64,000 nt of DNA from Escherichia coli (lineage in GTDB: Bacteria; Pseudomonadota; Gammaproteobacteria; Enterobacterales; Enterobacteriaceae). The DNA is taken from assembly GCF_003334815.1 (NCBI RefSeq), contig NZ_QOWO01000002.1; one strand, written 5' to 3'. The notes below the pieces were generated by a model that made no database searches, was not told the DNA's origin, and was given only the letters and a program-made list of their open reading frames with translations. The position numbers and the translations under genes were made by a program. Shown here one piece after another: positions 2,781-43,304 of the stretch; the stretch's first letter is position 1, and each line of letters begins with the position of its first letter.

Positions 2781-5063
<2,283 letters not shown>

Positions 5064-37466: not shown

Positions 37467-38657
37467 TTACAGCACTGCCACAATCGCTTCGCACAGCGGA
37501 GCCATGTTATCTGGTGTCATCCCGGCCACATTTACGCGACCAGAAGCAACCGCATATACGCCAAACTCTTCGCGCAGACGCAGCACTTGTTCTTTTGTCA
37601 GGCCACTGAAGGAGAACATGCCGTTCTGTTTGATGATAAAGCTGAAGTCGCGGTTTGCGCCTTTTTCCTGCAGCGTATTGACGAACAACTGACGCATACG
37701 CTGAATACGCTGGCGCATATCAGTCAGCTCTTGTTCCCAAATCGCACGTAACGCATCGTTGCTCAGGATGGTGGCAACAACAGAAGCGCCGTGTGCTGGT
37801 GGGTTAGAGTAGTTAGCGCGAATCGCCGCTTTCATTTGGCTGAATGCGCGATCAACGGTTTCACTGTCGGCAGCAACCAGAGTACAAGCGCCAACACGCT
37901 CGTTGTACAGGCCAAAGTTTTTAGAGTAGGAACTGGCAACAATCAGCTCTTTATGCATAGCCGCGAAAGCGCGCAGTCCTTCAGCATCTTCTTCCAGACC
38001 ACGGGCAAAACCCTGGTAAGCGAAGTCAAACAGCGGTAACCAGCCTTTCTCAACGGAGAGTTGTGCCAGTGTTTGCCATTGTTCCAGCGTAGGGTCGATA
38101 CCGGTTGGGTTATGGCAGCAGCCATGGAACAGCACTACGTCGCCAGCCTGAGCTTCATTCAGGCTGTTAATCAGTGCATCGAAGTCAAGAGTGTGATTTT
38201 CCGCATCATAATAAGCGTATTCACGAACTTCCAGACCTGCAGAGTTAAAGACGCTCTTATGGTTCGGCCAGCTTGGGTTGCTCACCCACACACGCTTAAC
38301 GCTGGTATTTTTTGCCAGGAAATCGGCAGCCACGCGTAGTGCGCCAGTGCCCCCCGGAGTCTGTGCCGTGCGAGCACGTTTGTCATTGATCAGGGCGCTA
38401 CCTTTACCAAACAGCAGTTCCTGAGTGCAGCGACCAAATTCAGGGATGCCGTCAATGCCGAGGTAATTTTTGGTGGTTTCATTTTCGAGCAGATACTGTT
38501 CAGCCTTTTTCACGCTGGTCAGTACCGGGGTTTTGCCCGTCTCATCTTTATAGACACCAATCCCGAGGTTAATTTTGCCGGGACGTTCATCGGCACGAAA
38601 CAGATCGGCCAGGCCCAGAATCGGGTCGGCAGGAGCGGCGGTAATGTTCTCAAACAT
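37467..38657 (-). CDS. aspC: aspartate aminotransferase
   Basis: 396-aa ORF ([60 protein letters not shown]…). Confidence 0.97.
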
Positions 38658-38786
38658 GACGAGGTTCCATTATGGTTACAGAAGGGAAGTCCGCTATCAG
38701 GGTAACGGGAGATTTACAAAATTCCAACTATTACTGATGAAAACGCAGGCTGTTTTTGCAAGACGTGAGATTGCTCTGGAAGGTAT

Positions 38787-38816
38787 AAAAAAAACAGGAC
38801 CAAAGTCCTGTTTTTT
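38787..38816 (-). terminator. rho-independent terminator after ompF (bidirectional hairpin)
   Basis: A-run, CAGGAC-CAAA-GTCCTG, T-run. Confidence 0.85.
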
Positions 38817-38841
38817 CGGCATTTAACAAAGAGGTGTGCTA

Positions 38842-39930
38842 TTAGAACTGGTAAACGATACCCACAGCAACGGTGTCGTCTGAACCTACGCCCAGTTTGT
38901 TGTCAGAATCGATCTGGTTGATGATGTAGTCAACATAGGTGGACATGTTTTTGTTGAAGTAGTAGGTTGCGCCCACTTCAAAGTAGTTCACCAGATCAAC
39001 ATCACCGATACCTTCTACGTCTTTCGCTTTAGATTTGGTGTAAGCGATGGACGGACGCAGACCGAAATCGAACTGGTATTGCGCAACTAACAGAACGTCT
39101 TGCGTTTTGTTGGCGAAGCCGCTGGTGTTTGTAAATTTATTAGTGATCGGCGTAGCGTTACGGGTTTCACCGTAGTTCGCTGCCAGGTAGATGTTGTTCG
39201 CGTCGTACTTCAGACCAGTAGCCCACTGTTCAGCTTTTTTACCGTTGCCAAGAGGTTGAGCTTCTTGCAGGTTGGTACGGTCAGCTGCACCATAAGCACC
39301 AACGATACCAAAGCCTTCGTATTCGTAGCTGATAGAACCGCCAACACCGTCGCCGTTAGAACGGCGTGCAGTGTCACGCTCGTTTTTACCCAGGTACTGA
39401 ACAGCGAAGTTCAGGCCATCAACCAGACCAAAGAAGTTGGAGTTACGATAGGTAGCAACGCCGCCAACACGACCAACGAAGAAGTCATCGCTGTATGCAG
39501 TATCACCACCAAATTCTGGCAGCATATCGGTGTAACCCAGTGCATCATAAACCACACCGTAGTTACGGCCGTAATCGAAAGAACCAACGTCAGCGTATTT
39601 AAGACCCGCGAATGCCAGACGCGTTTTGTTACCAGTTTGAGCGTCAGCGCCTTCAGAGTTGTTACCCTGGAAGTTATATTCCCACTGACCATAACCGGTC
39701 AGATCGGAATTGATTTGAGTTTCCCCTTTAAAACCAAGACGGGCATAGGTCATGTCGCCATTGCCACCGTAACTGTTTTCACCGTTACCCTTGGAAAAAT
39801 AATGCAGACCAACAGCTTTACCGTACAGATCTACTTTGTTGCCATCTTTGTTATAGATTTCTGCAGCGTTTGCAGTACCTGCTACTAACAGAGCAGGGAC
39901 GATCACTGCCAGAATATTGCGCTTCATCAT
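38842..39930 (-). CDS. ompF: outer membrane porin F
   Basis: 362-aa ORF, signal peptide [23 protein letters not shown]-terminal …VGIVYQF. Confidence 0.97.
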
Positions 39931-40080
39931 TATTTATTACCCTCATGGTTTTTTTTATGACACCTGCCACTGCCGTCAATAAGTTCTGTCAATAAAAATT
40001 TACGGAACTATTGATGAGAGTTTGGTGTCTTTATGTGTCTGCAGGCATCTTTCCATTCAAACTAACGTTTCGCTACCGTG

Positions 40081-40140
40081 AAAGTGCTACAAAGATAAAG
40101 ATTTGGTTTCAAAAAGAAAAAATATGTAACCAAAAGTAAA
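40081..40140 (-). promoter_or_regulatory. OmpR binding sites F1-F3 of the ompF promoter
   Basis: Reverse complement reads TTTACTTTTGGTTACATATT / TTTTCTTTTTGAAACCAAAT / CTTTATCTTTGTAGCACTTT, the canonical three tandem 20-bp OmpR boxes; implies ompF TSS near 40040 and a roughly 110-nt leader. Confidence 0.8.
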
Positions 40141-40355
40141 ATTTAAGGAACTTTGTGAACACCGTCATATTTCCATAGAGACGTGATGATATTTACAGCA
40201 ATTTTAATCTATTTATATGATTTCCTTATATTTAAATTAACTAAACGGAAATTTTGTTTCTGATGGAAACTTTATCGACCTGGCACAAAATCTTCTTTCA
40301 GACATCCAGAATGCCAAAAAATAGTATGAAAATTGTGCTATTAGCTAAGAAAAAA

Positions 40356-40388
40356 CTAATCCGCAATAAGAATGCGGATTAGTTTTTG
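40356..40388. terminator. strong hairpin with flanking A- and T-runs inside the ompF upstream region
   Basis: AAAAA-CTAATCCGCA-ATAAGAA-TGCGGATTAG-TTTTT. Confidence 0.55.
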
Positions 40389-40491
40389 CGCGTAAATGTT
40401 GCAATGTAATATTCCGTAACAGGATGATCGTTATGGCGGGGTTGCAAATAGATTGCTTGACTTAACAAACAGATAACTTGACAGAAAAGAT

Positions 40492-40519
40492 AAAAAAAGA
40501 GCCAGCGGGCGCTGGCTCT
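40492..40519 (-). terminator. rho-independent terminator after asnS
   Basis: AGAGCCAGC-GGGC-GCTGGCTCT with T-run on the minus strand (plus-strand A-run 40492-40498). Confidence 0.8.
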
Positions 40520-40532
40520 TGAAGACGCTAAA

Positions 40533-41933
40533 TTAGAAGCTGGCGTTACGCGGAGTACGTGGGAACGGAATCACATCACGTACGTTTTGCACGCCAGTTA
40601 CGTAAGCAATCAGACGTTCAAAACCAAGACCGAAACCTGAATGCGGAACAGTACCGTAGCGACGCAGATCGCGATACCACCAGTAATCTTCTTTATTCAG
40701 GCCCATTTCCAGCATACGCTCGTCCAGCACGTCCAGACGTTCTTCACGCTGGGAGCCACCAATGATCTCACCGATGCCCGGAGCCAGAACGTCCATAGCC
40801 GCAACGGTTTTACCGTCTTCGTTAAGGCGCATATAGAACGCTTTAATATCTTTCGGATAGTTTTTAACCACTACCGGTGCTTTAAAGTGTTCTTCCGCCA
40901 GATAACGCTCATGCTCAGAAGAGAGATCGACTCCCCAGTAAACCGGGTTTTCAAACTTCCTGCCGCAGTTTTCGAGAATGGTCACTGCGTCGGTATAATC
41001 CACCTGCGCAAAATCGGCTTCAATGAAGCGTTCCAGACGTGAAACGGCATCTTTATCTACGCGTTCAGCGAAGAATTTCATGTCGTCAGCGCGTTCTTCG
41101 AGAACCGCTTTGAAGACATATTTCAGCATGGCTTCAGCCAGACCCGCAATATCGTTCAGGTTAGCAAACGCCACTTCCGGCTCCAGCATCCAGAATTCCG
41201 CCAGGTGACGGCTGGTGTTGGAGTTTTCAGCACGGAAAGTCGGGCCGAAGGTATAAATTTTGGACAATGCGCAAGCGTAGGTTTCGCCGTTCAACTGGCC
41301 AGATACGGTCAGGAAAGACTCTTTACCAAAGAAGTCTTTGTCGAAATCCACTTTGCCCTGATCGTTACGCGGCAGGTTTTCCAGATCCAGCGTAGAAACG
41401 CGGAACATTTCGCCTGCACCTTCGGTATCAGATGCGGTAATCAGTGGCGTTGAAACCCAGAAGAATCCCTGCTCGTTAAAGAAGCGATGCAGCGCCTGCG
41501 CCAGCGTATGGCGAACGCGCGCGACGGCACCAATCAGGTTTGTGCGCGGACGCAGGTGAGCGACTTCACGCAGATACTCAATGCTGTGGCGTTTTGCCGC
41601 CATCGGGTAAGTGTCTGGATCTTCAACCCAACCAGCAACTTCAACCTTGCTGGCCTGAATTTCAAATTGTTGCCCCTGGCCCGGCGACGCCACGACTTTA
41701 CCCGTCACAATGACCGAGCAGCCGGTGGTCAGACGCAGGACGTCTTCATTGTAATTGGGCAGAGAATTATTGATGACAGCCTGTACAGGATCAAAGCAGG
41801 AACCGTCATAAACGGCGAGGAAGGAGATGCCAGCTTTTGAATCTCGGCGGGTACGTACCCATCCGCGCACGGTGACTTCGCTGTCAACGGCTACACGGCC
41901 CTGGAGTACGTCGGCTACAGGCACAACGCTCAT
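40533..41933 (-). CDS. asnS: asparaginyl-tRNA synthetase
   Basis: ORF-track 481 aa trimmed to ATG at 41933 giving 466 aa ([45 protein letters not shown]…). Confidence 0.96.
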
Positions 41934-42065
41934 AATATTCTCTCTGTTAATAGTCGGAAAAAATAAACACTTGTCCACCCGTAAATGGGGGGATACCTAT
42001 GTTACCTGGCATCTGCAATCAGACAAGCAGAATTCGCAAATGCAGCGAAAGATTTCGGAATTAAA

Positions 42066-42094
42066 GGTAAAAAAAGGGAGCCGATTAGCTCCCT
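42066..42094 (-). terminator. rho-independent terminator after pncB
   Basis: AGGGAGC-CGATTA-GCTCCCT with T7 run on the minus strand. Confidence 0.8.
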
Positions 42095-42101
42095 GATGAT
42101 A

Positions 42102-43304
42102 TTAACTGGCTTTTTTAATATGCGGAAGGTCGAACGCTTTGCGCAGCGCCCGAACAAACGCTTTATCATGGCAGATAGTTTTGCCAGGGCTGTCAGAAAG
42201 TTTCGCCACCGGTTTACCGTTACACTCTACCAACTTAATGACAATATTCAGGGGTTTTACCTGGGGGATATCGCAGGTCAGGCGAGTCCCAATACCAAAA
42301 CTTAATTGCACGCGGGAAGAGAAGTGGCGGTATAGCTCAACCGCTTTGCGTAAATCCAGATTGTCAGAGAAAACCAGCGTTTTACTCTGTGGATCAATTC
42401 CCAGCTTTTCATAATGTGCAATGGCTTTTTCACCCCATTCAACCGGGTCGCCAGAGTCATGACGCAGGCCCTGATACCGACTAGCGAACTCGACACCGAA
42501 ATCACGCAGGAAAGCATCCATAGTGATGCAGTCGGTTAATGCAATGCCAAGTTGGTCGGGATACTCTTCCAGCCAGGCAGCAAGTGCAGCTCGCTGGCTG
42601 TTGGCTAGATCCGGGCTGATTTGCTGATGTGCCTGGAACCATTCGTGTGCCTGTGTTCCCATCGGCGTGAGGGAAAGCCGACGCGCCAGATCGTAGTTGC
42701 TGGTGCCCACAAACCAGGATTCCTGTTGCAGACGCTTAACGATGGTTTCTTGTACTTCGCGAGAAAAACGGCGACGGGTGCCAAAATCCATCAGATGGAA
42801 GCGCGACATATCAAGACCGGCGGTTAACGCCGAGAAGTCGACTAATTTGCTTTCCAGCGTGTCGAGGGCTTGCGCAACGTCGGCCTGCGGTGAGCGATAG
42901 CGATGTACCATTTCACTGATAACCGCCAGCAAAGGAACTTCCCAGAGGATGACTTCACGCCACGGGCCGCTTAAACGAATATCCAGCTTGCCATTATCGT
43001 TGGACACGGTGACTTGTTCCGGGTTAAAGCGGAACTCGCGTAACCAGTTAAGATAGTCGGCCTTAAAGAAAGGCAGGGCAGAAAGCCACTGATATTCATC
43101 ATCCTGCAGGCGCAGGTGCTGCATCGCCTGAACCTGTTCACGAATAGCATCGGCATAAATACCCAGCAGATCGTCACCTCGGCAACGAAACTCCGCCGCG
43201 ACATGCACATCGTAATAGTGATGAAACACGGCTTGCTGCATATGCAACTTATAAGCATCTGTATCCAGCAACGAGTGCAGAACAGGAGAAGCGAATTGTG
43301 TCAT
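42102..43304 (-). CDS. pncB: nicotinate phosphoribosyltransferase
   Basis: ORF-track 416 aa trimmed to ATG at 43304 giving 400 aa ([32 protein letters not shown]…). Confidence 0.95.

Follow-up and report, generated by a model that had tools for sequence, protein, structure and literature searches.

The spacer between asnS and the porin gene ompF of Escherichia coli raises the question of how transcription leaving asnS is stopped ahead of the ompF promoter, and whether one terminator or two are involved. A sequence-only reading had noticed two strong hairpins with T-runs in the spacer and took them for tandem terminators insulating the porin promoter. Here, the locus was analyzed within a 64-kb window, the whole stretch of DNA under study. 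The account that we consider probable is that a single asnS terminator (hairpin A) precedes an ompF gene controlled by OmpR and MicF, with the second hairpin (hairpin B) being neither a conserved nor a demonstrable terminator of asnS.

The asnS–ompF spacer and the control elements of ompF

The genes aspC, ompF, asnS and pncB are all four located on the minus strand of the window, and the spacer is framed by the following features.

38842-39930, minus strand: ompF
39931-40532: asnS–ompF spacer, 602 bp, directly upstream of ompF
40533-41933, minus strand: asnS
40533-40535, minus strand: asnS stop codon (TAA)

Positions 985000-989500 of E. coli K-12 MG1655 are identical to the window at 4501 of 4501 bases, the spacer being base-for-base that of this strain, and MG1655 coordinates equal window coordinates plus 947052. 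No feature is annotated by RefSeq within 39931-40532. A search against Rfam over 38600-42200 on both strands (E ≤ 1) returned no family, and neither of the hairpins nor the opposite-strand RNA treated below corresponds to a described RNA family. Among 5426 complete E. coli genomes, 5425 contain the spacer. Strain EC25 (H1) has an IS1 annotated under the match, which splits the spacer into two pieces. The placement of a porin gene behind asnS is conserved across Enterobacterales, and the length of the spacer is approximately 600 bp in Enterobacteriaceae versus approximately 300 bp in Erwiniaceae, Yersiniaceae, and Pectobacteriaceae. The shorter spacer of the Yersiniaceae agrees with the reported absence from Yersinia of F4, the distal OmpR site.

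The ompF start maps to MG1655 987092, window position 40040, in SMRT-Cappable-seq data (Yan et al. 2018, Supplementary Data 1-2), from which the elements below were measured. The start had been expected near 40040 with a leader of about 110 nt; the mapped position is exactly 40040 and the leader exactly 110 nt.

39931-40040, minus strand: ompF 5' untranslated leader of 110 nt, with strong conservation among 13 Enterobacteriaceae
40047-40075, minus strand: ompF core promoter, placed relative to the mapped start, invariant across 13 species
40047-40052, minus strand: -10 element AAAGAT of the core promoter
40070-40075, minus strand: -35 element TAGCGA of the core promoter
40079-40140, minus strand: OmpR activator sites F1-F3, -100 to -39
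40140-40121, minus strand: F1, TTTACTTTTGGTTACATATT
40120-40101, minus strand: F2, TTTTCTTTTTGAAACCAAAT
40100-40099, minus strand: gap between F2 and F3, CT, 2 nt
40098-40079, minus strand: F3, TTATCTTTGTAGCACTTTCA
40401-40420, minus strand: distal OmpR repressor site F4, GTTACGGAATATTACATTGC, -361 to -380, located from the published distance of 260 bp
39920-39947, minus strand: MicF pairing site, ompF -17 to +11, covering the ribosome-binding site and the start codon

The promoter is described in the literature as the single known promoter of ompF, and its weak -10 and -35 hexamers fit one that would depend on an activator. Within the leader, 43 nt from the start, a Term-seq 3' end at 39998 (minus strand) is located at a point where no hairpin is present.

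The bases published as critical for OmpR are A4C5 and A14C15 in F1, A34C35 in F2, and C53 in F3, with 2 nt omitted from the numbering between F2 and F3. The register of F1-F3 was checked by means of this numbering and F4 was placed by its published distance, rather than by published site sequences; a literal text search of the literature for the F1-F4 sequences gave no relevant match. It can be observed that A4C5, A14C15, A34C35, and C53 all fall on the right letters solely in this register, and that 13 Enterobacteriaceae species show no variation at A14C15, A34C35, or C53. The sites had previously been assigned to 40081-40140, which is the right place but misses the end of F3 by 2 nt, since F3 reaches 40079 after the gap that follows F2. 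With Bergstrom numbering, this extension of F3 is the sole correction that the literature picture of ompF called for. F4 has been described as a distal repressor site of low affinity, 260 bp upstream of F1-F2-F3, which represses through looping. Its sequence repeats TTAC at a spacing of 10 bp in the manner of F1, and is strongly conserved in Escherichia and Citrobacter.

Two further conserved blocks were observed on the minus strand. The first, GAAATATGACGGTGTTCACAAAGTT at 40149-40173, is located just upstream of F1 and in other genera becomes a near-perfect palindrome, GAAyTTTGAG-N6-TCACAAAGTTC; this pattern looks CRP-like. The second, an invariant ATAAG.AA.TCATAT at 40210-40233 (about -170 to -193 of ompF), probably coincides with the IHF site of ompF. 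A promoter-like match on the plus strand, TTTACA-18-TATGAT (40192-40221), overlaps this second block.

For the small RNA MicF, the micF sequence was taken from MG1655 and its 5' seed of approximately 34-35 nt was used for duplex analysis. This seed analysis replaced the pairing of full-length MicF with the whole leader, which produced a meaningless long structure no better than that of many other segments of the window. The duplex of MicF nt 1-34 with the 5' end of ompF has a ΔG of -27.4 kcal/mol (z -5.4 versus shuffles) and is, by a narrow margin, the best of 1826 140-nt segments of the window. The leader had been named as the known target of MicF, and pairing was indeed found; the duplex spans just -17 to +11, however, and passes 39931 into the open reading frame. 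A Term-seq 3' end at 39918 (minus strand), 12 nt into the reading frame, lies 2 nt past the predicted end of the duplex at 39920.

Taken with the literature, these positions describe how ompF would be controlled. OmpR-P bound at F1-F3 (-100 to -39) would activate the weak promoter, the positions being those determined here and the binding that of the literature. At high levels of OmpR-P, F4 (-361 to -380) would repress ompF by looping over 260 bp, again with the position established here and the looping as published. MicF would pair with ompF from -17 to +11 and block translation, a mechanism known from the literature for which the complementarity was found in this sequence. In E. coli K-12 this control region of a porin gene is textbook material, and its content is already known: the sequence is 100% identical to that of the known K-12 regulatory region, and start, sites, and critical bases agree.

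Termination of asnS transcription at hairpin A

The first of the two hairpins encountered by transcription leaving asnS is the following.

40490-40520, minus strand: hairpin A, asnS intrinsic terminator, with its stem at 40497-40520 and its U-run at 40490-40496

The stem of hairpin A consists of 10 bp, 6 of them G-C pairs, with a loop of 4 nt (ΔG -17.8, z -5.0). The hairpin is located 12 nt from the asnS stop and is followed by UUUUUAU on the asnS strand. SMRT-Cappable-seq reads from the asnS promoter start at 989038 (57 full-length reads) place the end of the transcript at 987544, which is window position 40492, the last U of the run. Thirty reads end at this point, 2 end no more than 50 nt downstream, and 5 pass at least 50 nt further. 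Among the informative reads, 30/37 therefore end in the U-run of hairpin A and 5/37 pass through it, indicating that the terminator is leaky; the median extension of the reads that pass is 66.5 nt (n = 5). No asnS-ompF read-through operon is listed in the SMRT-Cappable-seq table.

An equivalent of hairpin A was found 3' of asnS in 24/24 Enterobacterales species examined, with compensatory changes at 7/9 pairs across these 24 species. The mapped 3' end in the U-run, together with this conservation and covariation, identifies hairpin A as the intrinsic terminator of asnS. It shares with canonical intrinsic terminators the GC-rich 10-bp stem, the 4-nt loop, the U7 run, the 3' end within that run, and covariation throughout the order. 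Transcription from asnS toward ompF is thus stopped approximately 40 nt past the stop codon by hairpin A alone, at the mapped 3' end of 40492. In Superficieibacter electus (L025, 4402-5187), a spacer of 786 bp holds two GCCAGC...GCTGGC hairpins resembling the asnS terminator, approximately 200 nt apart, in addition to a third hairpin; these may be genuine duplicated terminators.

Structure and variation of hairpin B

The second hairpin lies nearer to ompF, within the regulatory DNA of that gene.

40351-40387, both strands: hairpin B, a perfect 15-bp inverted repeat with a 7-nt loop, -311 to -347 of the ompF start
40351-40365 and 40373-40387: arms of hairpin B

Hairpin B is the longest perfect hairpin-type inverted repeat within the 64-kb window. 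Its ΔG is -21.2 on the minus strand and -20.3 on the plus strand (z -7.3 and -4.8), and both of the strong hairpins with T-runs singled out from the sequence are thus real, exceeding chance by far. An A-run and a T-run flank it in such a manner that a hairpin followed by a U-run arises on either strand. Its core has a stem of 10 bp, then U6 on the minus strand and U5 on the plus strand, so that all sequence features of an efficient intrinsic terminator are present; a simple terminator consensus scan did not flag it. The interval previously given, 40356-40388, captures the hairpin but frames its core stem with the T-run of the plus strand, the T-run of the asnS strand being located at 40350-40355. 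The possibility that hairpin B is a REP/BIME-type or other dispersed repeat was ruled out by its occurrence at a median of 1 place per genome.

Regarding position, hairpin B occupies part of the 260 bp of DNA that would loop, the stretch separating F4 from the F1-F3 module; F4, 13 bp away, lies further upstream. Since it is downstream of F4 for transcription coming from asnS, hairpin B cannot shield all of the ompF regulatory DNA. Regarding transcript ends, none is found at 9873xx/9874xx in SMRT-Cappable-seq, where only 5 reads run through hairpin A and short RNAs are missed. Term-seq in three conditions (Adams et al. 2021), which lists prominent ends only, likewise gives no 3' end at hairpin B on either strand. 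The Term-seq calls in this region are at 39918 (minus), 39998 (minus), and 40592 (plus), and hairpin A is likewise not called.

Variation within the species was followed by counting exact matches over the same 49 nt in 5425 E. coli genomes, which distinguished the following alleles.

K-12 allele, perfect stem: 1407/5425 genomes (26%), ΔG -20.2
O157-type arm, TAACCCGCA: 1883 genomes, ΔG -9.3 (z -2.0)
TAATCTGCA allele: 1024 genomes, ΔG -11.8
Single C-to-A form: 368 genomes, ΔG -14.0
TUM9757 allele: ΔG -3.0, no better than shuffles

In the remaining 74% of E. coli genomes the allele is weakened and uncompensated; even so, the commoner of these alleles keep a stem of 5-9 bp and a U-run (ΔG -9 to -14) and could have kept part of any activity. 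A comparison of six E. coli alleles located all changes in the 5' arm, with no variation in the loop, the 3' arm, or the T-run. Published work has exploited polymorphism in the spacer to trace E. coli to its host source, and this 5' arm is one of the polymorphic patches. E. coli GF60 (L087, ~500-951) carries an inserted copy of IS200C directly behind the T-run of hairpin B.

Between species, homologous sequence is present in E. albertii and Citrobacter but forms no hairpin B there (ΔG about -4.6, no better than shuffles). In an alignment of 12 sequences, 76% of cells are paired, which is the level of column shuffles, with one double change only, and RNAalifold did not recover the hairpin from the alignment. 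The K-12 stem owes its perfection to a derived C, the corresponding base being A in 6/6 outgroup sequences from five genera. The conserved half and the loop are recognizable in Citrobacter, Phytobacter, Leclercia, and Kluyvera as TTATTGYGG.TTAG. One arm conserved across genera while the other drifts would be a better fit to a block maintained at the DNA level than to an RNA stem under selection.

Hairpin B is therefore described here as a K-12-lineage perfect palindrome in ompF regulatory DNA, in which neither terminator activity nor structural conservation was detected. With a canonical intrinsic terminator it shares a stem and a U-run; unlike one, it has no mapped 3' end or covariation, its stem is weakened in most E. 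coli genomes, and it sits within the regulatory DNA of another gene. The conserved block consists of one arm, the loop, and the T-run (ATTCTTATTGCGGATTAGTTTTTT), and we infer a DNA-level constraint on it as part of the upstream regulatory DNA of ompF. The other arm drifts freely between lineages, and a derived A-to-C change perfected the palindrome of K-12 type. In that form, hairpin B may possibly serve as a minor terminator of the weak transcription that arrives from the two sides, one that is not required in the other 74% of sequenced E. coli.

The pattern of conservation also bears on whether the intact palindrome acts as DNA, either as a palindromic protein site or as a cruciform-prone element that modulates the loop between F4 and F1-F3 or the adjacent plus-strand promoter. 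One half and the loop are invariant in the six E. coli alleles and recognizable in four other genera, which is the pattern of a DNA site, and the position within the 260-bp loop, 13 bp from F4, would suit such a role. A true palindromic site, however, should keep both halves and just one is kept, the perfect palindrome is a derived state of the K-12 lineage, and by-eye inspection matched the consensus of no known factor. A role for the palindrome itself as DNA is consequently regarded as doubtful.

Opposite-strand transcription and the alternative roles of hairpin B

Transcription can approach hairpin B from the ompF side as well. Plus-strand starts were taken from Cappable-seq (Ettwiller et al. 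2016), in which they are listed with a relative read score. Its U00096.2 coordinates were converted to window coordinates by subtracting 946275, an offset validated by a start at 41006 that sits 7 nt past a perfect TATAAT at 40994-40999 on the plus strand. This weak start and its TATAAT belong to the antisense strand within asnS. The starts listed for the spacer are as follows.

40039, plus strand: start, score 22.9, back-to-back with the ompF start at 40040 and pointing into the OmpR sites
40070, plus strand: start, score 2.0
40098, plus strand: start, score 2.3
40350, plus strand: start, score 2.7
40419, plus strand: start, score 74.5 (U00096.2 986694), the strongest in the spacer among those listed
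40436, plus strand: start, score 1.9
40469, plus strand: start, score 1.6
40405-40419, plus strand: opposite-strand promoter in F4, with an extended -10 TGtAATATT at 40405-40413 and its start at 40419

The start at 40419 and the Term-seq end at 40592, preceded on the plus strand by a hairpin and GUUUUG, would delimit an RNA of approximately 174 nt. It would be antisense to the asnS terminator and to the last 60 nt of asnS, and its 3' hairpin region occupies 40555-40592. This RNA was rejected as a conserved sRNA: synonymous changes in asnS break the 3' hairpin in other alleles of E. coli, and other genera have lost the U-run. It probably represents lineage-specific antisense transcription. An array-detected opposite-strand transcript between ompF and asnS, 'C0240', has been reported (Stead et al. 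2011), and the start at 40039 may be its origin. A plus-strand reading frame of 42 codons (40254-40382) ends inside hairpin B. It was rejected as a conserved gene, since it occupies the least conserved part of the spacer and compares poorly even with E. albertii.

It has to be considered, then, whether hairpin B ends plus-strand transcripts from the ompF promoter region, such as those from 40039 or 'C0240', perhaps bidirectionally, and so keeps them off F4 and the asnS 3' end. The starts at 40039 (22.9), 40070, 40098, and 40350 all lie upstream of it on this strand, an opposite-strand transcript has been reported between the two genes, the hairpin is followed by UUUUUG on the plus strand with symmetric A/T flanks, and the reading frame of 42 codons closes within it. 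Against this, no plus-strand end is called near 40390, the only one being at 40592; furthermore, the hairpin lacks conservation to the same extent as it would for a terminator of asnS, and the region of the reading frame is poorly conserved even in comparison with E. albertii. This role is judged to be unlikely.

The bidirectional intrinsic terminators that Ju and colleagues are said to have described in 2019 reportedly consist of an A-tract, a hairpin, and a U-tract between converging transcripts. Hairpin B resembles them in being a perfect palindrome with A5-6 and T5-6 flanks that transcription can approach from both sides. It differs from them in that the genes on its two sides are not convergent and that neither strand yielded a 3' end at it. 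Within the window, this architecture is better exemplified by the ompF terminator (38789-38816), whose perfect hairpin of 12 bp with flanks of A6 and T6 looks bidirectional and has Term-seq ends (985841/2). Read-through transcripts from ompF into aspC are listed in the SMRT-Cappable-seq table.

The remaining role on the asnS strand is the one originally proposed, namely that of a back-up intrinsic terminator which would intercept polymerases that escape hairpin A before they enter the ompF promoter. It draws on the stability of the stem and the UUUUUUCUU that comes after it on the asnS strand, on the leakiness of hairpin A (5/37 informative reads), and on the position of hairpin B between hairpin A and F1-F3 with the core promoter. 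However, hairpin B is located approximately 145 nt past hairpin A, and a read-through of approximately 140 nt would be needed to reach it, compared with the median of 66.5 nt; no transcript end is found there in two datasets; and F4 would be left unprotected. Moreover, in 74% of E. coli genomes the stem is weakened without compensation, sister species are without the hairpin, and hairpin A alone suffices in other Enterobacterales. As far as the available data go, asnS transcripts terminate at one site only, hairpin A. Tandem insulation of the porin promoter by both hairpins is accordingly not borne out, and we regard it as quite unlikely.

Least of all do we favor, and consider very unlikely, a combined scheme in which the F4 operator doubles as the -10 element of the plus-strand promoter producing RNA antisense to the asnS 3' end, OmpR-P at F4 shuts this RNA off at high osmolarity, firing of the promoter could compete with F4 occupancy and looping, and hairpin B, in the K-12 lineage, insulates this unit from divergent transcripts of the ompF promoter. 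If true, the reading of F4 as a promoter would couple the osmoregulation of the porin to antisense transcription of the asnS 3' end.

In the main, the present analysis recognizes correctly, once more, a regulatory region that is among the best studied in bacteria, to which it adds nothing new: a single terminator behind asnS, and an ompF gene under the control of OmpR and MicF. Neither a possible link of the F4-embedded promoter to OmpR nor an effect of hairpin B would much change the accepted model of ompF. Nevertheless, an effect of hairpin B on ompF osmoregulation would be worth knowing, since work on the ompF promoter has been carried out nearly entirely on the K-12 allele, which is that of only approximately a quarter of sequenced E. 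coli.
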